From NCBI GenBank assembly GCA_963743945.1, contig CAVURO010000002.1:19433-83432 (forward strand): DNA of 64,000 nt. The letters are read 5' to 3'. Below, piece after piece: positions 9,535-64,000 of the stretch. A program made the translations under genes and the position numbers. The notes beneath the pieces are model-generated. The model did not search any database, was not told where the DNA came from, and worked only from the letters and a program-made list of their open reading frames with translations. This DNA is from an uncultured Actinomycetes bacterium (GTDB lineage Bacteria > Actinomycetota > Acidimicrobiia > Acidimicrobiales > CADCSY01). Position 1 is the first letter of the stretch, and the number at the start of each line of letters is the position of its first letter.

Positions 9535-11262
9535 TCAAGTGCCATCGACCTTCAGGCGTCGGCGCACGTGCGTTCGTGCATGCTCGATGGCATCGTCAAG
9601 GTTGTCGAAGAGGTGGCGTTCACTGGCCAGTCGGCTGAAGGCGCCGACGGCGTCGAGCGCCTGATGATGTTCGGGACGCACACCCTTGAGCAGCACGGTG
9701 ATGCCGCGACCCTCGAGCTCGGCAATGGTCTCCTCGAGTGCAGCGGCGCCGGTCGCGTCGAGCATGCGGATGTCGCCAAGACGAAGGATCACGACCTTCA
9801 CGTCTCCCACGTTCGTCAGCTCGGTGAGGAACTGTTGTGCAGCGCCGAAGAACAGCGAGCCCTCGATTCGATAGACCACGATGCGTTCGTGGAGCAGGCG
9901 ATGCTCGTCGTCGACGTCGATCTCCGCGTCACCGTTGATCGGCTGTTGTGCGACGCCTGAGGTTCGGGCCACCGCGCGCAGGGCGATGATGGCGGCGAGG
10001 GTGACGCCCACCCCGACGGCCAGGATGAGGTCGAAGGCGATCGTCACCGCTGCGGTGACCACGAGCACCACCGCGTCACCCCGGGTGGAGCGGATCACCG
10101 CACGCACGTTGTGTGGCTCGACCATGCGAATGGCTGTCACCATCAGCACGCCCGCCAGCGCGGCGAGCGGAATGCGAGCGACCAGCGAGCCGGCGGCGAG
10201 GACAACTCCGAGCAGCACGGCCGAGTGGACGACTGCCGAGAGGCGGGTGCGTCCCCCCGCCCTGACGTTGACGGCGGTCCGGGCGATCGCCCCAGTCGCA
10301 GGTATCCCGCCGAAGAGGGGCGAGACGACGTTGGCCAGACCTTGTCCGAACAGCTCACGATCGGGGTCGTGGCGTGCCGTGTCGGACATGCCGTCGGCGA
10401 CCTTTGCCGACAGCAGGCTCTCGATGGCGGCCAGCGCGGCGATGGCGAACGCGGCGGAGAGCAGGTCGCTCATGCGCTGGATCGAGATGTCGGGCAGGGA
10501 AGGGAGCGGCAGGGAATCGGGGAGCGAACCGATTCGCGCCACGTCGAGATCGCCGAGTTGAGCGATCACGGTGGCGACGACCACCGCCACGAGCGACGCG
10601 GGGAGGCTCCTGCGCACTCGCGGGAGGCCGAACATCGTCGCCGCCACGACGCCTACAAGTCCCACCGCCGCCATCGTGCCGTCGCCACCCAGTGCGTCAC
10701 CGAGGGCTCGTCCGGCCACCATGGCGGCATTCTCGCCATCGGGCTTCATCACGCCGAGCGCGTTCGGCACCTGTTGCAGAAAGATCAACGCCGCGATACC
10801 GATCGTGAATCCTTCGATGACCGGCCATGGCACGTAGCGAAGCGCCCGCCCAAGGTGGGCAATCGAGGCGATCACGACGATGACGCCCGCCATCAGGCCC
10901 GCGAGGAACACCCCATCGGCGCCAAAGCGGGCGACGATGGGCACGAGCACCACAGTCATCGCGCCGGTGGGCCCTGAGACCTGCACGTCCGATCCCCCGA
11001 AGACCGCGGCGACGACGCCGGCCACGATCGCCGTGATCAGGCCGACCGACGCTCCCAATCCGGTCGTCACCCCGAAACCGAGTGCGAGCGGCAGGGCGAC
11101 GATCCCGACGGTGAGACCGGCAAGGAGATCCTGTTTCCAGGAATGGCGCGCCCGGGCGTAATCGGCGCCCCGCGGCATCAGGCTCGTAACCAAAGATGCC
11201 CGCCCGTTCCGACGCTTCCGCCCTTGCCGCAGGCCCCGATCCGATGCGTCGGACTTCGTCAC
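9535..11262 (-). CDS. SulP-family anion transporter with C-terminal STAS domain
   Basis: 575 aa. Polytopic SulP core (GLTVGIVALPLALGFG) and a C-terminal STAS fold (VVYRIEGSLFFGAAQQF...ILRLGDIRMLDATG). Confidence 0.9.
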   Translation of the reverse strand: MTKSDASDRGLRQGRKRRNGRASLVTSLMPRGADYARARHSWKQDLLAGLTVGIVALPLALGFGVTTGLGASVGLITAIVAGVVAAVFGGSDVQVSGPTGAMTVVLVPIVARFGADGVFLAGLMAGVIVVIASIAHLGRALRYVPWPVIEGFTIGIAALIFLQQVPNALGVMKPDGENAAMVAGRALGDALGGDGTMAAVGLVGVVAATMFGLPRVRRSLPASLVAVVVATVIAQLGDLDVARIGSLPDSLPLPSLPDISIQRMSDLLSAAFAIAALAAIESLLSAKVADGMSDTARHDPDRELFGQGLANVVSPLFGGIPATGAIARTAVNVRAGGRTRLSAVVHSAVLLGVVLAAGSLVARIPLAALAGVLMVTAIRMVEPHNVRAVIRSTRGDAVVLVVTAAVTIAFDLILAVGVGVTLAAIIALRAVARTSGVAQQPINGDAEIDVDDEHRLLHERIVVYRIEGSLFFGAAQQFLTELTNVGDVKVVILRLGDIRMLDATGAAALEETIAELEGRGITVLLKGVRPEHHQALDAVGAFSRLASERHLFDNLDDAIEHARTHVRRRLKVDGT

Positions 11263-15316: not shown

Positions 15317-15717
15317 TGGCGCGATTCGAACCCCAAACCAACGAGCTCACCGCCCCCTTCTGGGATGCGACCAAGGAAGAGCGCTATCTCGTGCAGTGGT
15401 GCTCGGGCTGCAACAAGGCGATCTACTACCCCCGTGAGGTCTGCCCCGGGTGTCTCACGTCGGACGACCTCGAATGGCGGGAATCGCCCGGACGCGGGGA
15501 GGTCTACACCTTCAACGTCACGCACAAGCCCGGTCTGCCTTTCATGACCGATCGCCTTCCCTTCGTGGTTGCCCTGGTGACGCTGGAGGAAGGTACCCGT
15601 GTGGTCACCAACATCGTCAACTGCGACCCTTCGGAGGTCAGCGTGGGGATGCCCGTGAAGGTGGCATGGGAGGATCTGTCCGACGGTCGCAAGATTCCGG
15701 TCTTCGAGCCTGCCTGA
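15316..15717 (+). CDS. Zn-ribbon/OB-fold protein (DUF35 family), partner of the thiolase-like protein
   Basis: CSGCNKAIYYPREVCPGC rubredoxin-like knuckle followed by an OB fold (GEVYTFNV...VALVTLEEG). 1-nt overlap (TGATG) with the upstream gene. Confidence 0.85.
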   Translation: MARFEPQTNELTAPFWDATKEERYLVQWCSGCNKAIYYPREVCPGCLTSDDLEWRESPGRGEVYTFNVTHKPGLPFMTDRLPFVVALVTLEEGTRVVTNIVNCDPSEVSVGMPVKVAWEDLSDGRKIPVFEPA

Positions 15718-15802
15718 TCCCCGCCGGGGAGCATTCCACGGCGCGTGAACGAACTCGCGTGGACCTTCAGCGACTGGCGCGTGTTCGGCGAGTGGCGCGT
15801 GT

Positions 15803-17413
15803 TCAGGCGAGCTCGACGAGTTCCAGCATGTCCTCGTCGAAATGATCGAGCGTGCCCTCGGGCATGGTGAGTGCCCTGTCGGGTTGGAGGCAGCGCACGA
15901 ACTCCACATCGTGGCTCACGACGACCATCGTCCCGGGCCAGCCGGAGAGTGCCTCACCGATGGCGGTGCGCGAGGCGGGGTCGAGGTTGTTGGTGGGCTC
16001 GTCGAGCAACAACAGGTTGTGTCCGCCCGCGACGAGTTGCGCGAGTGCGAGCTTGGTCTTCTCGCCACCCGAGAGCGTGGCGGCGTCCTGAACGACCTTG
16101 TTCCCCGAGAGGCCGAACATGCCGAGCACACCCCTCGACTGCTGCTCGCCGATCGAGGTGTTCTCGCACATGTGCTCCAGCAGGCTGCGACCGGCGGTGA
16201 TGCCCTCGTGCTCCTGGGCGTAGTAGCCGGGCCGAGCGCGCGCGTCGAGGCGAACCTTGCCCAGATCAGGTGACACACGCTCGGCGATGATCTTCAACAT
16301 GGTCGTCTTTCCGGCCCCGTTGAGCCCGATGATCAACAGTCGCTCCCCGCGCCCGAGGTCGAAGCTGATGTCCTCGAAGACGTCGAGTTGCCCGTAGCTC
16401 TTGTGGACGCCGGATGCCTCGAGGACCGTGCGCCCGATGGGGGGCGGGTCGGGCAGTCGTAGGTCGAGCTTGCGGTGCTTGGTCGGCGCATCGACCTTGG
16501 TCGCCTCGATGCGTTTGGCACGAGCGTCGAGATTCTTCGCCACCCGCGCTCGTTTCGCGGTCTGGCCGCGCATCGAGTCGGCCTGTGCGGTCAGTCGGGC
16601 GATCTCCTTGGTCTGTCGCGACGCCAACGCACCGAGACGGACCTCGTCCTCCTCGCGCGCCCTGATGTACTGCGAGTAGGAGCCCCGGTACTCGATCAGC
16701 TCACCCGTCGCCTCCTCCTGCTCACGATCGAGGTGGAGCACGCGGGTGATGGCCTCGTCCAGCAGGCCGAGGTCGTGGCTGATGACCAGCAACGCGCCGC
16801 GGTAGGTCCGCATGTACTGAAGCATCCAGTCGCGGGCGTCGGCATCGAGGTGGTTGGTCGGCTCGTCGAGCAACAGCAGATCGCTGCCGGCGAACAGGAT
16901 CCGGACGAGCTCAAGACGGCGACGCTCACCACCCGAGAGCGAGCCGATGCTGAGCTCGAGACGGTCGGGTGAAAGAGCGAGGCCGGCAAGAAGTCGGTGG
17001 ACCTCGCTCTCGGCCGCGTAGCCGCCGAGGCGCTCGAACGCCTCCTGAGCATTGGTGAAGGCGAGGATGTTTGCCTCGGAAGGGTCCTCCTCCAGGGCAC
17101 GAGTCAGCTTCTCGAGTCGGGTGGATGCGACGTCGAGGCCTCGACCGGAAAGCACATGGGACAGGCAGTTGGTGTCCGGCGACGCGAGGTCTGCTCGCGG
17201 GTCCTGGGAGAGGTATCCGGTTGCCTCGGAGCGCCGAACGGTTCCACCGCGTGGGACCGAGGCCCCACCCAGGACCTTGAACAGGGTGGTCTTGCCGGCG
17301 CCGTTGCGGCCGACGAGACCGACCTTGTCACCGGGACGAACGTCCACGGACACACCCGAGACGATGGTTTTGCCGCCGATCTCGACGACGAGGTCACGTG
17401 CGATCAGGGTCAT
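15803..17413 (-). CDS. ABC-F family ATPase (two tandem ABC domains, no TMD)
   Basis: Two Walker A sites (GRNGAGKTT, GLNGAGKTT) and two signatures (LSGGERRR, LSGGEKTK), with an inter-domain linker. 536 aa. Confidence 0.92.
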   Translation of the reverse strand: MTLIARDLVVEIGGKTIVSGVSVDVRPGDKVGLVGRNGAGKTTLFKVLGGASVPRGGTVRRSEATGYLSQDPRADLASPDTNCLSHVLSGRGLDVASTRLEKLTRALEEDPSEANILAFTNAQEAFERLGGYAAESEVHRLLAGLALSPDRLELSIGSLSGGERRRLELVRILFAGSDLLLLDEPTNHLDADARDWMLQYMRTYRGALLVISHDLGLLDEAITRVLHLDREQEEATGELIEYRGSYSQYIRAREEDEVRLGALASRQTKEIARLTAQADSMRGQTAKRARVAKNLDARAKRIEATKVDAPTKHRKLDLRLPDPPPIGRTVLEASGVHKSYGQLDVFEDISFDLGRGERLLIIGLNGAGKTTMLKIIAERVSPDLGKVRLDARARPGYYAQEHEGITAGRSLLEHMCENTSIGEQQSRGVLGMFGLSGNKVVQDAATLSGGEKTKLALAQLVAGGHNLLLLDEPTNNLDPASRTAIGEALSGWPGTMVVVSHDVEFVRCLQPDRALTMPEGTLDHFDEDMLELVELA

Positions 17414-55997: not shown

Positions 55998-56073
55998 TGG
56001 TGGTCGGGACCGGCGTCGATCCGGTGACCTCACGCTTTTCAGGCGCGCGCTCTGCCAACTGAGCTACCCGACC
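55998..56073 (-). tRNA. tRNA-Phe (anticodon GAA), CCA encoded
   Basis: Reverse complement GGTCGGGTAGCTCAGTTGGCAGAGCGCGCGCCTGAAAAGCGTGAGGTCACCGGATCGACGCCGGTCCCGACCACCA folds as a cloverleaf. 7-bp acceptor stem GGTCGGG/CCCGACC. Confidence 0.95.
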
Positions 56074-56105
56074 TTGCATGCGGGGACGTCAGAGGACCTC
56101 CCCAG

Positions 56106-56180
56106 CGGTCCCGACGGGATTTGAACCCGCGACCTCCGCCTTGACAGGGCGGCGTGCACTCCAGACTGCACTACGGGACC
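56106..56180 (-). tRNA. tRNA-Asp (anticodon GTC)
   Basis: Reverse complement GGTCCCGTAGTGCAGTCTGGAGTGCACGCCGCCCTGTCAAGGCGGAGGTCGCGGGTTCAAATCCCGTCGGGACCG. T-loop GGTTCAAATCC. No encoded CCA. Confidence 0.95.
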
Positions 56181-56213
56181 AGGGTGAGCGCTTATGTCTG
56201 CGCCGCTCTTGCG

Positions 56214-56286
56214 CACCCCCAACGGGATTCGAACCCGTGCTGCCGCCGTGAAAGGGCGGTGTCCTAGGCCGCTAGACGATGGGGGC
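56214..56286 (-). tRNA. tRNA-Glu (anticodon TTC)
   Basis: Reverse complement GCCCCCATCGTCTAGCGGCCTAGGACACCGCCCTTTCACGGCGGCAGCACGGGTTCGAATCCCGTTGGGGGTG. No encoded CCA. Confidence 0.95.
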
Positions 56287-56389: not shown

Positions 56390-56863
56390 TCATGCGAGCG
56401 ACTCGATCATCGAGTCGAGCAGGTAGCCGAGATAGCCGTAGACGGCGTAGGTGTCCGCTTGCGGGTGGTTCGGATCGAGCAGGTTCGGGTCGTCGTCCTC
56501 GCTGACATCGAGGTGGGTTCCGAGGATCAGCCGGAGATCGTTGACCACGTTCATCCAGGCCGACAGAGCCTGTTCGTCGATTCGTCCCGCTTCGAGGGTG
56601 TCGCGCACCGTACGAAGCTTCTCGCGACGAAGAGCGACCAGGTCGTTGCCGACCAGCACCTGGTACGAGGCCTCGAGATCGGGGTCATCGGGGTGGGCAA
56701 CCGGGAAAAGTCGCCGCAGGACGGGGTTGTCGCTCGGCCTCTGCTCGTCGGCCAACGCGGCGTCGAGTTGTTCCACGAGGTCACCGAGGAGGCGACGCTC
56801 GGGCTCCGAAAGCTTGAGCTCGAAGTCGCCCTGGCGGGTTCGGCGCACGGGGCCCCGGCTCAT
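56390..56863 (-). CDS. DUF2017-family protein (conserved ClpS neighbour in actinobacteria)
   Basis: Start at MSRGPVRR. Acidic protein directly downstream of clpS. The family call rests on recalled synteny and composition. Confidence 0.65.
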   Translation of the reverse strand: MSRGPVRRTRQGDFELKLSEPERRLLGDLVEQLDAALADEQRPSDNPVLRRLFPVAHPDDPDLEASYQVLVGNDLVALRREKLRTVRDTLEAGRIDEQALSAWMNVVNDLRLILGTHLDVSEDDDPNLLDPNHPQADTYAVYGYLGYLLDSMIESLA

Positions 56864-56879
56864 GCGAGGTGTCGTGTCA

Positions 56880-57182
56880 TCAGTCGTGCTGCATGGTCGC
56901 CCAAAGACCATGCTCGTGGAGGCGGAACACGTCGAGCTCACACTTCTCGCGTGTGCCGTTCGCCACCACCGCCCGACCTTTTTCGTGGACGTCAAGCATC
57001 ATGGCGGTCGCCTTCTCCCTGCTGTAGCCGAACAGCTTCTGCAGCACGAAGGTCACGTACGACATCAGGTTGATCGGGTCGTTCCAGACGAGGACGATCC
57101 AGGGCGTGTCGGCGGCAACGGACTCATCCGATGTCGGCTCGTCGACCTCGACCGGAGCGAGCGACATCGACAGCGGTGTCAT
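56880..57182 (-). CDS. clpS: ATP-dependent Clp protease adaptor ClpS
   Basis: [47 protein letters not shown]. Confidence 0.93.
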
Positions 57183-58194: not shown

Positions 58195-59109
58195 GTGCTG
58201 CATCCCGCGACCCTGCCCGTGTCCTTGCGCACCCGGCTTGTTTCGGTGGTCGGCGCCTACGTGGCGCTGACGAAGCCCCGCATCATCGAGTTGCTTCTGA
58301 TCACCACGGTCCCAACCATGGTCGTCGCAGCGAGAGGCTTTCCGTCAGGGTGGCTGGTGCTTGCAACATTGTTGGGCGGCACGTTGGCCGCCGGTGGGGC
58401 CAACGCGATCAACATGTACGTCGATCGCGACATCGACGCGATCATGGAGCGGACCCGGAACCGTCCTCTTGTGACCGGAGCGGTCGCTCCTCAGCACGCG
58501 CTCGTCTTCGCGATCGGGCTCGAAGTGGCGGCGTTCGCATCCCTGTGGGCGCTGGTCAATCTCCTCAGCGCTGTTCTGGCGGTCTCGGCGACCCTGTTCT
58601 ACGTCTTCATCTACACGATGTGGTTGAAGCGGAGTTCCACCTCGAACATCGTCATCGGGGGCGCGGCGGGGGCGGTGCCGGTGTTGGTGGGTTGGGCTGC
58701 GGTGGAGAACTCCCTGGGCTGGGCACCACTGGTCCTTTTCGCCATCATCTTCTACTGGACCCCGCCCCACTTCTGGGCACTTGCCGTTCGGTACAAGGAC
58801 GACTATGCGGCGGCGGGGGTGCCGATGCTGCCCGCGGTGGTCAGCCTCCGAGCCACGGCGGTACGGATGCTCGGCTACACCCTCTTCCTCTGGGCCTTGA
58901 CCCTGGTGTTCGCCCCGGTCGCAGACATGGGATGGCTTTACGTGAGCGCAGCGATGGTGCTCGGCGGCATCTTCGTCTGGTACGCCGTGCGCCTGTTGCG
59001 CAACCCCACCGCTGGGGTCGCGATGTCGATGTTCACCTATTCGATCACCTACATCAGCTTGTTGTTCGGGGCGATGGCGCTGGACCAGGTTCTGCGGTCG
59101 GGAGCGTGA
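58195..59109 (+). CDS. ctaB: Protoheme IX farnesyltransferase (heme O synthase)
   Basis: LTKPRIIELLLITT, GGANAINMYVDRDIDAIMERTRNRPL, YWTPPHFWALA. Confidence 0.94.
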   Translation: MLHPATLPVSLRTRLVSVVGAYVALTKPRIIELLLITTVPTMVVAARGFPSGWLVLATLLGGTLAAGGANAINMYVDRDIDAIMERTRNRPLVTGAVAPQHALVFAIGLEVAAFASLWALVNLLSAVLAVSATLFYVFIYTMWLKRSSTSNIVIGGAAGAVPVLVGWAAVENSLGWAPLVLFAIIFYWTPPHFWALAVRYKDDYAAAGVPMLPAVVSLRATAVRMLGYTLFLWALTLVFAPVADMGWLYVSAAMVLGGIFVWYAVRLLRNPTAGVAMSMFTYSITYISLLFGAMALDQVLRSGA

Positions 59110-59133: not shown

Positions 59134-59155
59134 GCGGGGGGATTTCTCCCCCCGC
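59134..59155 (+). terminator. GC-rich stem-loop after ctaB (9-bp stem, 4-nt loop, no U-tract)
   Basis: GCGGGGGGA-tttc-TCCCCCCGC, 25 nt after the ctaB stop. A TAGAGT hexamer follows at 59169-59174. Confidence 0.45.
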
Positions 59156-59260
59156 CACTCATGGTGTGTAGAGTCCGGTCCGGCCGCGATCGGCCGTCAC
59201 CCAGGCCAGAGCAGGGCGTCACAGGGCGTCGTGCGACGATTCCGAGGTTCGTGCTGATTC

Positions 59261-60853
59261 ATGTCGATGACCGAGACAAGACCTGACACCGAGATCGCTG
59301 CGCCGGTGAGTGTGGACGATTCTCCCATCGATACGCCCGCCGGTCTGGCCGGTTGGCTGACCTCCACCGATCACAAGGTCATCGGTCGGCTCTGGGTGGT
59401 CACGTCCTTGGCGTTTCTGGTCGTCGGCGGTGTCCTGGGCTCGATGCTTGCCGGCGAGCGCATCGAGAGCGGTATGGACATCATCGACCTCGGTGCCTTC
59501 CAACAGGTGTACAGCCTGCACGGCGAGGTTGCGGTCTTCCTCTTCCTGGTTCCCTTCTTCATCGGGTTGGCCACCTACCTGGTCCCGCTGCAGGTTGGGG
59601 CGACCGAGATCTCGTTCCCTCGGGGCGCAAGCTTTGCCTACTGGGGATACGTCGTTTCGGGAGGACTGCTCCTGGCTTCCTACATCGCCGACGGTGGCCT
59701 TGCGGGCGGCAGCAAGACCGGCATCGACCTCTACCTGCTCAGTCTGATCTTCCTCAACGTTGCGTTGTGCGCAGCAATCGTCGCCATCCTGGCCACCGTC
59801 ATCGCCATGCGTGCTCCCGGCATGACGCTGATGCGCACGCCCTTGTTCTCCTGGTCCTTCCTCGTGGGTGGTGGGCTGACCCTGCTCGCAACCCCGGTTC
59901 TGATCGCGCATCTGGTGGAGTTGTACGTGACGCACCACTTCGGGGGGTCGCTCGAGGCCACGACCGGTATCGGTTGGTTCTGGGCGGTTCCTCAGGTCTA
60001 CGTGTCGGCCATTCCGGCCCTCGGTGTCGCGCTCGAGATCGTTCCGGTGCTTGCCGGGTCCCGTCTCGTTCCCCGAGGCGCGTCACTGGTCCTCATCGGC
60101 CTTGCGGGCGTGCTCGGCTTCGGCGCCTACGCCCAGGTCGGCCCCATCTTCGACGACGCGTTGTTCGTCGGTATGGGCCTCGCCGGCGTGCTGCCCATCC
60201 TCGGCCTGCTGGGTCTCGTCGGCGACTCGATGCGCAGGGGCAGGTTCACGGTCAAGGCGCCGATGCTGTTGGCCCTGGGGTCGCTCGTGTTGTTCCTCAT
60301 CGGGGCCGCCGCCGGTGCGGCATCGGTCATCGACGCCCTCGACCTGCGAGGCACCGTGTGGGGTGTCGGTCAGGCACATCTCATCCTGGAGGGCGCCGGC
60401 CTGTTGGCTGCATTCGCCGCCCTCTGGTTCTGGGCGCCGAAGATCTGGGGCATCACGCTCAACGACGTCGCCGGCAAGCTGGTCTTCCTCCTCGCTTTTG
60501 CGGGGGCTTCGGCGTTGGCGGTTCCCGACCTGGTGAACGGACTGGTCGAGGATCAGGCGATCGGTGCGATCGACATCCCGTCGGGCTCTTCGGTCGAAGC
60601 GATGAACGCCGTCTCCTCGGCAGGCGGCGCCTTGATGCTGCTTGCGGTTGTGCTCACCATCGCCGCGCTGGTGAGCGCCTTTGCCCGTAGGAAGTCCAAC
60701 CCCGTGGTCGATGATCCGTGGGACGGCTTCACCTTGGAATGGTCGACGGCGTCGCCGCCACCTCCGGCCAACTTCGATGAGCCGGTCGGGCTCGTCGCCT
60801 CACCCACCCCTGTTCTCGACCGCCGTTCCGATGGCTCGGAGGCTCTCCTCTGA
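59261..60853 (+). CDS. Heme-copper oxidase subunit I paralogue lacking CuB and high-spin heme ligands
   Basis: 530 aa, clearly COX1-like (TDHKVIG, YSLHGEV, FPR, DPWDGFTLEWSTASPPP). GHPEVY reads AVPQVY, WAHHMF reads AYAQVG, AHFHYV reads GQAHLI. Confidence 0.85.
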   Translation: MSMTETRPDTEIAAPVSVDDSPIDTPAGLAGWLTSTDHKVIGRLWVVTSLAFLVVGGVLGSMLAGERIESGMDIIDLGAFQQVYSLHGEVAVFLFLVPFFIGLATYLVPLQVGATEISFPRGASFAYWGYVVSGGLLLASYIADGGLAGGSKTGIDLYLLSLIFLNVALCAAIVAILATVIAMRAPGMTLMRTPLFSWSFLVGGGLTLLATPVLIAHLVELYVTHHFGGSLEATTGIGWFWAVPQVYVSAIPALGVALEIVPVLAGSRLVPRGASLVLIGLAGVLGFGAYAQVGPIFDDALFVGMGLAGVLPILGLLGLVGDSMRRGRFTVKAPMLLALGSLVLFLIGAAAGAASVIDALDLRGTVWGVGQAHLILEGAGLLAAFAALWFWAPKIWGITLNDVAGKLVFLLAFAGASALAVPDLVNGLVEDQAIGAIDIPSGSSVEAMNAVSSAGGALMLLAVVLTIAALVSAFARRKSNPVVDDPWDGFTLEWSTASPPPPANFDEPVGLVASPTPVLDRRSDGSEALL

Positions 60854-61467
60854 TGGCTGCGACCATGACCAAACCATCCGATTCCACCTCGGCGCTACCG
60901 CGTCGGGGCGGCATTGCCATGACCGGGTCGATGCTCGCCATCGCCGCGGGGGTGATGCTCTTCGGGGGACTCTTGGCGAGTTACTTCGGCCAACGCGGTG
61001 CTGCTCAGGCAGCGGGCGAGGCATGGCTGCCTGAGGGACTTGCCTTGCCGAACGTCGCCTTGGCCACCACCTACCTGGCCCTGTTCATGTCGGCGGTGAC
61101 GGCCCAATGGGCGGTAACGGCGATCAAGCAGAACGACCGTCTGAATCTCTACTGGGCATTGGGAACCACGCTCTTCCTGGCCTTCGCCTTCATCAACGGG
61201 TTGACCTTCTGTTGGCGAGAGCTCGGGCTTGTTGCGGGCTCGGGCACCTATGCAGCGCTGGTGTACGCCATCACCGTGAGCCATCTGCTCGTCGTGATCG
61301 CGGCGATAGCGGTCTTCTTGGTGATGGGATTCAGGTCCCTTGGTGGGCAGTTCTCGTCACAGAACAGCGAGTTCGTGGCATCGGCTGCAGCCTTCTGGCA
61401 TTTCGCCGTGGGTGCGGGTTTCCTCGTCTATTTCTCGCTCTGGTTCCTCGAAGGGGCACCCAAGTGA
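60853..61467 (+). CDS. Cytochrome c oxidase subunit III-like membrane protein
   Basis: 204 aa, five hydrophobic helices, C-terminal FWHFAVGAGFLVYFSLWF resembles the subunit III WHFVDVVW motif. TGATG overlap with the upstream gene. Confidence 0.65.
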   Translation: MAATMTKPSDSTSALPRRGGIAMTGSMLAIAAGVMLFGGLLASYFGQRGAAQAAGEAWLPEGLALPNVALATTYLALFMSAVTAQWAVTAIKQNDRLNLYWALGTTLFLAFAFINGLTFCWRELGLVAGSGTYAALVYAITVSHLLVVIAAIAVFLVMGFRSLGGQFSSQNSEFVASAAAFWHFAVGAGFLVYFSLWFLEGAPK

Positions 61468-62237
61468 TCACGACCGGCGCAAAGTTCTGGTTCGGCCTCA
61501 CCTTCTTCACGCTCGTTGCCGCGGTGACGTATTTCGTGGGCAGCGGTGGCGAGGAGTTCGGTTCGGTTGTTCTGTCGGCCGCGACGATTGCCTCGTTTGT
61601 GGTCGGTGCCACGTGCGCCGGCCTGCGGGACGGAAACCTTCAGACGCCCGGTGGGCGCTCGGTCACGGTCGGGGTGACACCACGGCGCTCTGCGGGGCCG
61701 GCGCCTTGGCCGGCGCTCGGTGCGGTCGGAGTAGCGGTCTCGCTGGTGGGTCTCGCCGGTGGCAATGCGCTGCTGTACGTGGGTATGGGCATCATGGCGG
61801 TGGTCCTCGTGGAGTGGATGGTGCAGGGTTGGGCAGAACGGTCCACGGCCGACGCCGATCACAACCGGGAACTCCGCAATCGCCTCATGCAGCCCGTGGA
61901 GTTCCCGGTGCTCGCGGCCGCGACGATCGCCCTTGTCGTCCTGTCGCTGTCCCGGGTGCTCCTGGCACTGTCGAAGACCGGGTCGACCGTCATCGCCATC
62001 GTGATCGCCTCGGTGATTCTCCTGGTCGCCTTCGTGGTGGCCGCTCGACCCCGAATCAGCTCAGCGTTGCTGAGTGCCCTCCTCGTGGTCTCGGCCGTGG
62101 GTCTCATCGCCGGCGGGATCACCAGCGCGGTGATCGGTGAACGTGAGATCGAGAAGCACGGCACCGAGTCCCACAGCGACGGACCTACGGGGACCCAGCC
62201 GGTTGGCGACGAGGCACCTGAGGACACACACCCATGA
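61464..62237 (+). CDS. Polytopic membrane protein with CtaF (actinobacterial subunit IV)-like N-terminal half
   Basis: The N-terminus ITTGAKFWFGLTFFTLVAAVTYFVGSGGEEFGS resembles my recollection of CtaF N-termini. About 257 aa, roughly twice CtaF length. GTGA and ATGA overlaps with both neighbours. Confidence 0.5.
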   Translation: MITTGAKFWFGLTFFTLVAAVTYFVGSGGEEFGSVVLSAATIASFVVGATCAGLRDGNLQTPGGRSVTVGVTPRRSAGPAPWPALGAVGVAVSLVGLAGGNALLYVGMGIMAVVLVEWMVQGWAERSTADADHNRELRNRLMQPVEFPVLAAATIALVVLSLSRVLLALSKTGSTVIAIVIASVILLVAFVVAARPRISSALLSALLVVSAVGLIAGGITSAVIGEREIEKHGTESHSDGPTGTQPVGDEAPEDTHP

Positions 62238-63331
62238 AGGTCAGGAGTCCAGCCATGAAGCTCGGCCGTGTTCGCCGTGCCGCCTTTTCGCCGCCGAGCC
62301 TGATGGCGGCTTTGACGTTGGGACTGTCCGCTTGCGCGAGTGACGCTCCGCAGGACACGCTCGATCCGGCCGGGCCGCTGGCCCGCAGCATCGACAACCT
62401 GTTCGTCCCGGTGTTCTGGATCGCCGCCGCCGTCTTCTTTCTCGTGCAGGGCATCCTCATCGTCGCCGTCGTCAGGTTTCGGCGTCGGCCCGGTGACGAC
62501 GAGTTGCCGCGGCAACTTCACGGCAACACCATTTTGGAGCTGGGCTGGACGGCGTTGCCCGCGCTGGTGCTCGCCGTGGTCGGGGTGCTGACCTTGCCCG
62601 TGATCTTCGATCTCAACGAGAAGCCGGCCGATGCCCTCCAGGTGAAGGTGGTAGGGCAGAAGTACTGGTGGGCCTACGAGTACCCACAGGTGTCGGAAGA
62701 GTTTCCCAACCAGGCAGGCTTCGGCCTCGATGGGGAGAAGCCCATCGTGACCGCGAACGAGTTGCACGTCCCCGCAGGCCGGCGGGTGTTGCTCACGCTC
62801 ACCTCGACCGATGTCATCCATTCCTTCTGGGCTCCCCGACTGAACGGCAAGCGAGATGTCGTGCCAGGTCGGACGCATACGTGGATGATCGAGGCGGACG
62901 AGCCGGGCGTCTACTCGGGTCAGTGCGCGGAGTTCTGCGGCGTGTCGCATGCCAACATGCGCCTCAAGGTCGTCGCCCATGACGCAGCGGGATGGAAAGA
63001 CTGGCTGGCGGGTCAGATGCCTGACGCAACGACGCCGACATCCGGCCCGGCAGCGGAGGGATACGCGCTCTTCGGTCAGCAGTGCGCCATGTGCCACAAG
63101 GTCGACGGCGTCTACAACCAGGTTCAGGCCACGTCGCCTTCGGCCCCGAATCTCACCCACCTGTTCAGTCGCGACTGTTTCGCCGGCTGCCTTTATGATC
63201 TGAACGACCGCAACGAGCTCAAGGCCTGGTTGCGTGACCCCCAGCGCAAAGCCGGTTCTCTGATGGTGATCCCCAAACTCTCCGAGGGTGACATCGACAA
63301 GCTCGTTGCCTACCTCGAGACGTTGGACTGA
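62234..63331 (+). CDS. ctaC: Cytochrome c oxidase subunit II with fused C-terminal cytochrome c domain (caa3 type)
   Basis: Lipobox LSAC, two TM helices, CuA site HSFWAP...CAEFCGVSHANM, heme c motif CAMCH at 63083-63097. Confidence 0.93.
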   Translation: MKVRSPAMKLGRVRRAAFSPPSLMAALTLGLSACASDAPQDTLDPAGPLARSIDNLFVPVFWIAAAVFFLVQGILIVAVVRFRRRPGDDELPRQLHGNTILELGWTALPALVLAVVGVLTLPVIFDLNEKPADALQVKVVGQKYWWAYEYPQVSEEFPNQAGFGLDGEKPIVTANELHVPAGRRVLLTLTSTDVIHSFWAPRLNGKRDVVPGRTHTWMIEADEPGVYSGQCAEFCGVSHANMRLKVVAHDAAGWKDWLAGQMPDATTPTSGPAAEGYALFGQQCAMCHKVDGVYNQVQATSPSAPNLTHLFSRDCFAGCLYDLNDRNELKAWLRDPQRKAGSLMVIPKLSEGDIDKLVAYLETLD

Positions 63332-63347
63332 CGGAAAGACTGCGATC

Positions 63348-64000
63348 ATGGCTCTTACTCATCTGGAACCAGCGCTCGATGTACGGGACAGCGAAGCTCC
63401 CGCCCCGTTCCTGGGTGTCTTTCGACGACCGACGACCAACACCGGCTGGCGTTCATGGTTGACGACGGTCGATCACAAGAAGATCGGGATCCTGTACGGG
63501 GGTTCCGCCCTTGTGTTCTTTGCCGTCGGCGGGCTCGAGGCTTTGCTCATTCGTGCACAGCTCGCCCAGCCGGAGGGGCAGGTCCTCACTCCCGAGCAGT
63601 ACAACCAGGTGTTCACGATGCACGCGACCACGATGGTGTTCCTGGTGATCATGCCGATGCTCGCCGCATTCGCCAACTACCTCATCCCCATCATGATCGG
63701 CGCGCGCGACGTCGCCTTTCCACGGCTCAATGCGCTCAGCTTCTGGATATTCATCGTCGGTGGACTGTTTCTCTACTCCAGCTTTCTCTTCGGTGGGGCC
63801 CCTGACGGGGGCTGGTTCGCCTACCTGCCGAACACGGGCCCGGTCTACTCTCCGGGCGCCGGCATGGATTTCTGGGGCCTGGGGTTGCAGATCACCGGCA
63901 TCGCGTCGCTGCTGGGCGCGATCAACCTGATCGTTACCTGTCTCAACATGCGTGCGCCCGGCATGACCCTCATGCGAATGCCCATGTTCGTGTGGATGTC
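63348..64000 (+). CDS. ctaD: Cytochrome c oxidase subunit I, canonical (5' partial, runs off the window)
   Basis: Not in the ORF track because it has no stop in the window. My translation from ATG 63348: MALTHLE...WLTTVDHKKIGILYGG...YNQVFTMHATTMVFLVIMP...GARDVAFPRLNALSFW...MRAPGMTLMRMPMFVWM. GGAAAG lies about 10 nt upstream. Confidence 0.92.
   Translation, partial: MALTHLEPALDVRDSEAPAPFLGVFRRPTTNTGWRSWLTTVDHKKIGILYGGSALVFFAVGGLEALLIRAQLAQPEGQVLTPEQYNQVFTMHATTMVFLVIMPMLAAFANYLIPIMIGARDVAFPRLNALSFWIFIVGGLFLYSSFLFGGAPDGGWFAYLPNTGPVYSPGAGMDFWGLGLQITGIASLLGAINLIVTCLNMRAPGMTLMRMPMFVWM

Follow-up and report, generated by a model that had tools for sequence, protein, structure and literature searches.

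The DNA analysed here, hereafter the window, is a stretch of 64,000 nucleotides (nt) from an uncultured bacterium of the Acidimicrobiia (GCA_963743945.1, contig CAVURO010000002.1, positions 19,433 to 83,432), and its last part, positions 59261-64000, carries five genes of a caa3-type cytochrome c oxidase locus on one strand. Junctions were taken directly from the sequence letters and open reading frames (ORFs) from the listing of the window; all five ORFs are intact, and their family assignments hold (Table 1). The first three genes encode a subunit I paralogue, a subunit III paralogue and a third membrane protein, called I', III' and X below, and canonical ctaC and ctaD follow them. The locus is a conserved variant of the caa3 operon with a selected pseudo-oxidase module. 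A preliminary description had read it as a five-gene, translationally coupled operon in which a dead subunit I paralogue and two accessory-like subunits are produced together with a live oxidase, and this interpretation proved largely right but incomplete.

Table 1. Genes and sequence elements of the oxidase locus, in window coordinates (aa, amino acids)
Feature	Position	Strand	Description
I'	59261-60853	+	530 aa; COX1-like, predicted non-catalytic subunit I paralogue
III'	60853-61467	+	204 aa; COX3-like, divergent subunit III (CtaE) paralogue
X (IV'-anchor)	61464-62237	+	257 aa membrane protein; GTG start at 61464; seven predicted helices
ctaC	62234-63331	+	caa3-type subunit II with fused cytochrome c domain; likely start 62255
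ctaD	63348-64000	+	canonical subunit I; runs on past the window, with 217 of its 671 codons inside
ctaB	58195-59109	+	haem O synthase, directly upstream of I'; NF003349 394 bits (cut-off 246)
ctaA	57179-58129	-	haem A synthase, divergent from ctaB; PF02628 (COX15-CtaA) 86 bits
Hairpin GCGGGGGGA-TTTC-TCCCCCCGC	59134-59155	+	GC-rich, nine pairs, just past ctaB, seen in the RNA fold
Conserved block GTGTGTAGAGTCC	59164-59176	+	13 nt; includes the -10-like hexamer TAGAGT at 59169-59174

I' matches PF00115 along its whole length (188.8 bits against a cut-off of 34.8) and does not reach the scores of the CtaD equivalogs, with 249.4 bits for TIGR02891 (cut-off 670.75) and 239.8 bits for NF050116 (cut-off 880). 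Among solved structures, it is matched best by mycobacterial CtaD chains (E = 4e-55). A structure model made from 26 family members has 12 transmembrane (TM) helices (pLDDT 77.5, pTM 0.84) and aligns with mycobacterial CtaD 6adq_F at a Foldseek TM score of 0.82, which places it in the COX1 fold. Automatic annotation calls the I' family 'cbb3-type cytochrome c oxidase subunit I'; we rejected this label since the best family and structure matches are to subunit I of A-type aa3/caa3 oxidases.

Four of the six metal-ligand histidines are missing from I', in agreement with the degenerate state that the preliminary description had ascribed to it. Of the six, I' keeps the two that bind the low-spin haem and no others: H87 and H373, which align with the TM2 histidine and the second TM10 histidine of canonical CtaD. 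The motif GHPEVY has become AVPQVY, a change that removes the D-channel Glu together with the first CuB histidine. At the three CuB positions stand V, Q and a gap, with no HH pair left; Q has taken the place of the haem a3 histidine, and the Asn of FPRLN is Gly. The residues characteristic of the D-channel and the K-channel are not found. Across 117 full-length close homologues of I', no CuB histidine is present at any of the three positions (0/117 each), and the haem a3 histidine is present in three and replaced by Gln in 105. The equivalent of Glu286 is Glu in none (Gln in 77, and Thr, Ala, Ser, Gly or His in the rest), the K-channel Lys equivalent to Lys362 is Leu in 110, and the propionate-binding Arg pair is mostly gone, with Arg at the two positions in 4/117 and 21/117. 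Both histidines of the low-spin pair are present in 97 of these homologues and both are lost in eight. With the ligands of CuB and of haem a3 gone, and likewise the Glu of the D-channel and the Lys of the K-channel, the I' of the window is predicted to be unable either to reduce O2 or to pump protons. It would probably still bind one low-spin haem via the kept histidine pair.

The subunit III-like character that had been assigned to the second gene stood up. III' scores 35.5 bits for PF00510, above the cut-off of 23.8, and its best NCBIfam match is aa3_CtaE_Actin (NF050119) with 48.3 bits, below the cut-off of 190, which suggests a weak CtaE homologue.

The third gene, taken earlier as subunit IV-like, is of mixed make-up. 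X appears to consist of an N-terminal half of four TM helices that is homologous to actinobacterial CtaF and a C-terminal anchor of three helices; its GTG start is backed by the conserved N-terminus MITTGxKxWF. X has no Pfam family of its own, and the window protein by itself gives no match to PF12270 (actinobacterial subunit IV). PF12270 is matched by 8 of 28 X relatives (best E = 7e-7), and the X family profile matches the solved mycobacterial CtaF chains 9wcx_m and 8hcr_H over residues 6-114 (E = 2e-5). The top three Foldseek matches of the X model are CtaF chains too; these are not significant (E = 0.2-1.3), hence the IV-like call rests on the sequence profile. The earlier assignment thus holds at family level for the N-terminal half, and does not hold for the C-terminal half, which is a three-helix anchor and not a plain subunit IV. 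A DUF979 match of X (19.7 bits, cut-off 26) was rejected as noise from transmembrane composition.

The C-terminal three helices of X match the anchor of membrane-bound cupredoxins, and many X relatives carry a C-terminal cupredoxin. The chain of the window X ends 32 residues past the last helix, with neither a cupredoxin nor a type-1 copper site, and among its 120 closest relatives just two have an intact type-1 copper motif. Intact sites (YHNVAVY...C-D-F-H-P-N-M; His, Cys, His, Met) are found in the relatives L048, L059, L090, L091 and P0145. The state of the X cupredoxin varies by lineage, being intact, degenerate or absent.

Anchors of this kind also occur in other Actinomycetota caa3 clusters that have no I' or III' genes (L023, L028, L044, L063, L069 and L075). 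There, the region after ctaG encodes a homologue of the C-terminal half of X (an anchor of three helices) and, behind it, one to three cupredoxin domains whose type-1 copper motifs are intact. In addition, L091 has thioredoxin-like (TlpA/Redoxin) genes at 9722-10291, between the X-cupredoxin gene and ctaC, and at 15470-15985, after ctaG, as would fit functions in copper-site maturation that move together with the operon.

The two genes behind X are bona fide caa3-type genes, as had been proposed. ctaC has the Pfam domains COX2_TM, COX2 and Cytochrom_C and 189.1 bits for TIGR02866 (cut-off 147.7), and its translation contains CAEFCGVSHANM (CuA motif) and CAMCH (haem c motif), as in a caa3-type subunit II. 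The part of ctaD in the window reaches 248 bits for TIGR02891 over a mere 217 residues. An exact look-up of the ctaC protein of the window returned no match on record. The region downstream of 64000, where the preliminary description had suggested a search for ctaE and ctaF, is represented by locus L001, a 150-kb contig of GCA_964349815.1 that encodes an I' 99% identical to that of the window. Its order is ctaA on the opposite strand, then ctaB, I', III', the 257-aa X, ctaC, ctaD, COX3, COX4_pro and Caa3_CtaG; these last genes are ctaD (671 aa), ctaE (206 aa, PF00510), ctaF (109 aa, COX4_pro, PF03626) and ctaG (301 aa). Instead of five genes, the whole unit reads as (ctaB)-I'-III'-X-ctaC-ctaD-ctaE-ctaF-ctaG, with eight genes, or nine when ctaB is counted.

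Since a complete ctaCDEFG set follows X in L001, I', III' and X are additional paralogues. The possibility that 60853-62237 are simply the only canonical subunit III and IV genes of the organism, raised earlier as an alternative, has nothing except family resemblance in its favour. It is refuted, with next to no probability left to it, by the canonical ctaE, ctaF and ctaG behind ctaD in L001 and in all related loci, and by the merely 21-26 bits that III' scores against the ctaE of the same operon.

The canonical ctaD of these loci (L001:14088-16103 and equivalents) is 650-736 aa long and has a C-terminal extension weakly matching PF12270, so that, going by these matches, the live oxidase seems to possess a CtaF-like tail fused to CtaD in addition to a separate ctaF of the COX4_pro type. 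In one relative (L085:10902-12903), ctaD was called as three fragments of 86, 343 and 266 aa, which could reflect a frameshift or an assembly error; the I' of this relative has lost both haem a ligands.

The junctions that had been proposed were all borne out on reading the sequence. The stop of I' overlaps the start of III' in TGATG (60851-60855), the stop of III' overlaps the start of X in GTGA (61464-61467), and X overlaps ctaC in ATGA (62234-62237) if the first ctaC ATG is used. The ctaC stop (63329-63331) is followed by a 16-nt spacer (63332-63347) with GGAAAG (63333-63338) and then by the ctaD ATG. For ctaC, the ATGA is present but ambiguous as the actual start: a second ATG stands at 62255 with AGGAG (62244-62248) 6 nt before it, and gene callers placed the ctaC start of L001 at the equivalent of this later ATG, which suggests that the overlap is perhaps not the start in use. 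With 62255 as start, the gap between X and ctaC is 17 nt and still tight. Overlaps of 1-4 nt are frequent in high-GC operons and, alone, are nothing remarkable. What exceeds chance is the recurrence of tight junctions together with gene order in relatives whose I' is only 35-57% identical, where the gene calls give mostly 1-4-nt overlaps.

The survey of gene order that had been recommended gives a uniform result. The order is kept in eight full and five partial genome loci, in every long locus reached via I' relatives (L085-L091), and in 23/23 metagenome loci >6 kb that were retrieved via an X-specific motif. In this X-motif set, III' lies directly upstream of X in 33/37 cases and ctaC directly downstream in 38/44; several of the exceptions appear to be ORF-sorting artefacts, judged on the loci >6 kb that show the full order. 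A motif scan of genome contigs with 10-kb flanks found nine Acidimicrobiia loci with the module; its motifs are shared with canonical CtaD, and its results were mostly ordinary oxidases at 28-38% identity. The I'-III'-X-ctaCDEFG layout is conserved across the whole class Acidimicrobiia. Contigs of three loci with typical Acidimicrobiia/Actinomycetota oxidase clusters (L021, L066 and L075) are titled Bifidobacterium or Bifidobacteriaceae in records of metagenome-assembled genomes (MAGs), and these titles are probably the result of mislabelling or mis-binning.

The three extra genes could be functionless relics, that is, decaying duplicates carried passively in the operon. In support of this, the catalytic residues were lost stepwise, and in a comparison of L001 with L088 (I' 81% identical, synonymous divergence dS saturated) the extra genes evolve faster than their canonical counterparts, with a nonsynonymous divergence (dN) of 0.12-0.13 versus 0.05-0.07. 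However, in the same comparison the ratio of nonsynonymous to synonymous differences (pN/pS) lies at 0.15-0.17 for the extra genes (I' 0.16, III' 0.15, X 0.17) versus 0.09 for ctaD and 0.07 for ctaE, and I', III' and X are, by this measure, evidently maintained by purifying selection. Moreover, every locus examined has them as intact ORFs, some 70 alignment columns do not vary among 26 sequences that are 48-81% identical, synteny and overlapping junctions are universal, and more than 120 ligand-deficient clusters exist at 50% identity. Passive carriage is thus very improbable.

In a rough neighbour-joining tree, all first-gene COX1-like proteins form a single long-branched clade outside all canonical CtaD, and the branching of this clade mirrors that of the adjacent caa3 ctaD, which indicates vertical co-inheritance. 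Origin by tandem duplication of the adjacent ctaD/ctaE was considered and found unsupported, as I' scores 201 bits against its neighbour and 220-270 bits against other CtaD, namely aa3-type CtaD of Chloroflexota or other Acidimicrobiia.

The relatives can be sorted into three grades of decay. Grade A (L048, L059, L090 and L091; I' at L048:5629-7281, L090:9001-10602 and L091:6490-8127) keeps both haem sites and has an X with an intact type-1 copper cupredoxin. Here the low-spin pair is found in 120/120 sequences and the haem a3 histidine in 98/120, the first CuB histidine is Arg in 120/120, Glu/Asp and Tyr/Phe are kept, and the K-channel Lys is lost; in grade A, the oxidase scaffold may have given rise to a copper-less protein that is active. 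Grade B, the type of the window, keeps one haem site, usually with an X that has no cupredoxin. In grade C (L007, L010, L021, L031, L036 and L046), all six histidines are lost and the locus is kept. The family is large: in a profile search of 1.84 billion cluster representatives, 14 of the best 140 full-length representatives (50% identity) have all six histidines and 69 have none. Grade C loci and the varying X cupredoxin imply that the conserved function cannot depend on redox cofactors, and in the best explanation the module would be a reduced remnant of a once redox-active unit.

With this series in mind, I' might be an independent redox module. Its low-spin haem would relay or store electrons that pass from a donor (a cupredoxin or the bcc complex) to the caa3 oxidase, or I', III' and X would carry out another copper-independent reaction. 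The bis-His pair kept in the window and, in less degenerate relatives, both haem sites, a Glu and a Tyr near the former active site, the Arg that always replaces the first CuB histidine and the intact cupredoxin on X are all in line with such a role. On the other hand, the cupredoxin is missing from the window X, I' is not encoded together with any subunit II-like partner, Gln stands at the position of the haem a3 ligand, neither the D- and K-channel residues nor the propionate Arg pair survive, and sister lineages persist without any ligand. We regard an independent redox module as rather unlikely. Another reading, in which I'-III'-X is an unclassified copper-less branch of the superfamily, redox-active in grade A, with the window version as a haem-binding remnant in an obligate live/dead heterodimer with caa3, is more plausible than that and is put forward tentatively, the odds being against it.

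The 151-nt spacer between ctaB and I' holds the two elements listed in Table 1. In the 13-nt block, 11 columns are invariant in the ctaB/I' spacer of six relatives, where the surrounding spacer has diverged; the hexamer is TAGTGT in L089. The block could serve the operon as promoter or operator, and it would fit, without proving it, the transcript start near 59170 that had been guessed earlier. The hairpin is AGGAGGA-TTTC-TCTTCCT in L088, with both arms changed yet pairing kept, and it is absent in more distant relatives. The terminator scan did not call it, there being no T-run behind it. In some relatives ctaB is coupled to I': the two overlap by 4 nt in L090 and are 7 nt apart in L048 and L091. 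A scan of the cluster, limited to the sigma-70 consensus, found no promoter of this type, and terminator-like sites inside the cluster were at chance level (4 found versus 3.8 expected). The genes lie on one strand with overlapping or very short junctions that recur in relatives and with no terminators above chance, all of which speaks for a single operon. From gene spacing and synteny we infer a single transcript, translational coupling and stoichiometric co-production.

We suggest that I'-III'-X is non-catalytic and serves the caa3 oxidase as a partner in structure, stability or supercomplex formation, a reading that we hold to be somewhat better than evenly balanced. I' (pseudo-CtaD), III' (pseudo-CtaE) and X (CtaF-like half plus anchor) are, in this reading, paralogues of the subunits of an A-family haem-copper oxidase of actinobacterial type and would be produced alongside the live caa3 oxidase. 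The three proteins may assemble as a membrane subcomplex that docks on the caa3 oxidase to give a live/dead oxidase pair, in which I' of this lineage would keep one low-spin haem.

Several points weigh against this partner role. Contact between the proteins, haem content and a common transcript have inferred standing only. RNA signal amounts to two exact 151-nt contigs, both inside III' and both from one rhizosphere RNA library that maybe contains DNA. Runs with the locus of the relative L010 show even depth over genes of both strands, and are probably DNA rather than RNA. The conserved -10-like block sits before I', an equivalent before ctaC was not sought, and the promoter scan covered sigma-70 only. 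Furthermore, the low-spin pair is kept in 83% of close relatives, which suggests that haem still matters in this lineage, and a pure scaffold role leaves that unexplained.

The kept pair has a ready place in a different scheme, in which I', with III' and X, would briefly hold haem a from CtaB/CtaA in its bis-His pocket and pass haem a, or a pre-assembled module, to CtaD. The relation of NifEN to NifDK is an analogous case of a paralogous cofactor scaffold. Such haem handling would suit genes that lie directly between ctaB and ctaC, are coupled to ctaB in some relatives, and have the low-spin pair as the only cofactor site left in this lineage (97/117). In less degenerate relatives this pair is present without exception (120/120). 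It sits badly with the many lineages that have lost both histidines, or even all six ligands, and keep the same locus and order, and with the loss of the propionate-binding Arg pair. Tight coupling to structural genes also suggests near-stoichiometric production, which would be unusual for an assembly factor. We consider this scheme doubtful, though less so than an independent redox module.

The layout had been described as non-classical, which is correct for the insertion and incorrect for the downstream half. The latter resembles the caa3 ctaCDEF(G) operon of the Bacillus subtilis type, with ctaC carrying cytochrome c, then ctaD, ctaE, COX4_pro ctaF and Caa3_CtaG, and with ctaA/ctaB nearby. 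In contrast to that type, three ligand-deficient I/III/IV paralogue genes are inserted here between ctaB and ctaC, and ctaD has the C-terminal PF12270-like extension. The order also differs, as had been noted, from the actinobacterial ctaD / ctaCF / ctaE-qcrCAB arrangement; here the genes are contiguous and not scattered. At the protein level, CtaD/CtaE/CtaF of actinobacterial bcc-aa3 (PDB 6adq, 6hwh, 8hcr and 7q21) are the nearest relatives: they include the best matches of I', aa3_CtaE_Actin is the best for III', and CtaF is the only significant match of the N-terminal half of X. However, I' is without four of six ligand histidines and both proton channels, I', III' and X are far under the NCBIfam cut-offs, and X has three more helices.

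Two further systems offer partial parallels. AcoP, the product of the 'cup' gene in the Acidithiobacillus rus operon, is a cupredoxin encoded just upstream of the subunit II gene (bioRxiv 10.1101/2020.03.01.968255), and it binds cytochrome c oxidase and sustains its activity (PMC4059628). In relatives of the present locus, too, the gene immediately before that of subunit II encodes a type-1 copper cupredoxin with a membrane anchor. X of the window has lost the cupredoxin, however, and its anchor is made of CtaF-like four helices plus three helices; we claim no homology to AcoP. The eNOR, bNOR, sNOR, gNOR and nNOR branches also reuse the subunit I scaffold with altered active-site residues, but they are catalytic and have retained their haem ligands as well as a metal site with three ligands (PMC11214002), whereas here the CuB/FeB site is wholly abolished and the haem sites are also gone in many members.

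Our search of the literature found no description of the I'-III'-X module, which is apparently new to it. Haem-copper oxidases are among the best-studied membrane enzymes, and the I' family is large yet overlooked. A standard haem-copper oxidase classifier threw out sequences without the six ligand histidines (PMC3084760), which probably explains why the family went unnoticed. If our reading is true, a class-wide, selected and operon-coupled dead I/III/IV set would be a clear pseudoenzyme module in a respiratory complex. The natural series, which starts with two haems and a cupredoxin and passes via one haem to none, could reveal which parts of the scaffold serve assembly, stability or supercomplex formation apart from catalysis. 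As to annotation, metabolic reconstructions from MAGs ought not to take I', III' and X of Acidimicrobiia for one more terminal oxidase.

The genes around the module are also arranged in a recurrent way. The five genes had been said to stand straight after the haem O and haem A synthase genes; ctaB is indeed directly upstream, but ctaA lies on the minus strand, divergent and not in series, and its position is the same in every related locus compared. A DUF2017 gene (56390-56995) and clpS (56880-57182), both on the minus strand, adjoin ctaA and together span 56390-57182. This DUF2017/clpS/ctaA trio recurs next to the oxidase genes in almost every long related locus that was examined, L088 being an exception with four other genes between clpS and ctaA. 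Further out, a cluster of tRNA-Phe(GAA), tRNA-Asp(GTC) and tRNA-Glu(TTC) genes lies at 55998-56286 on the minus strand of the window.

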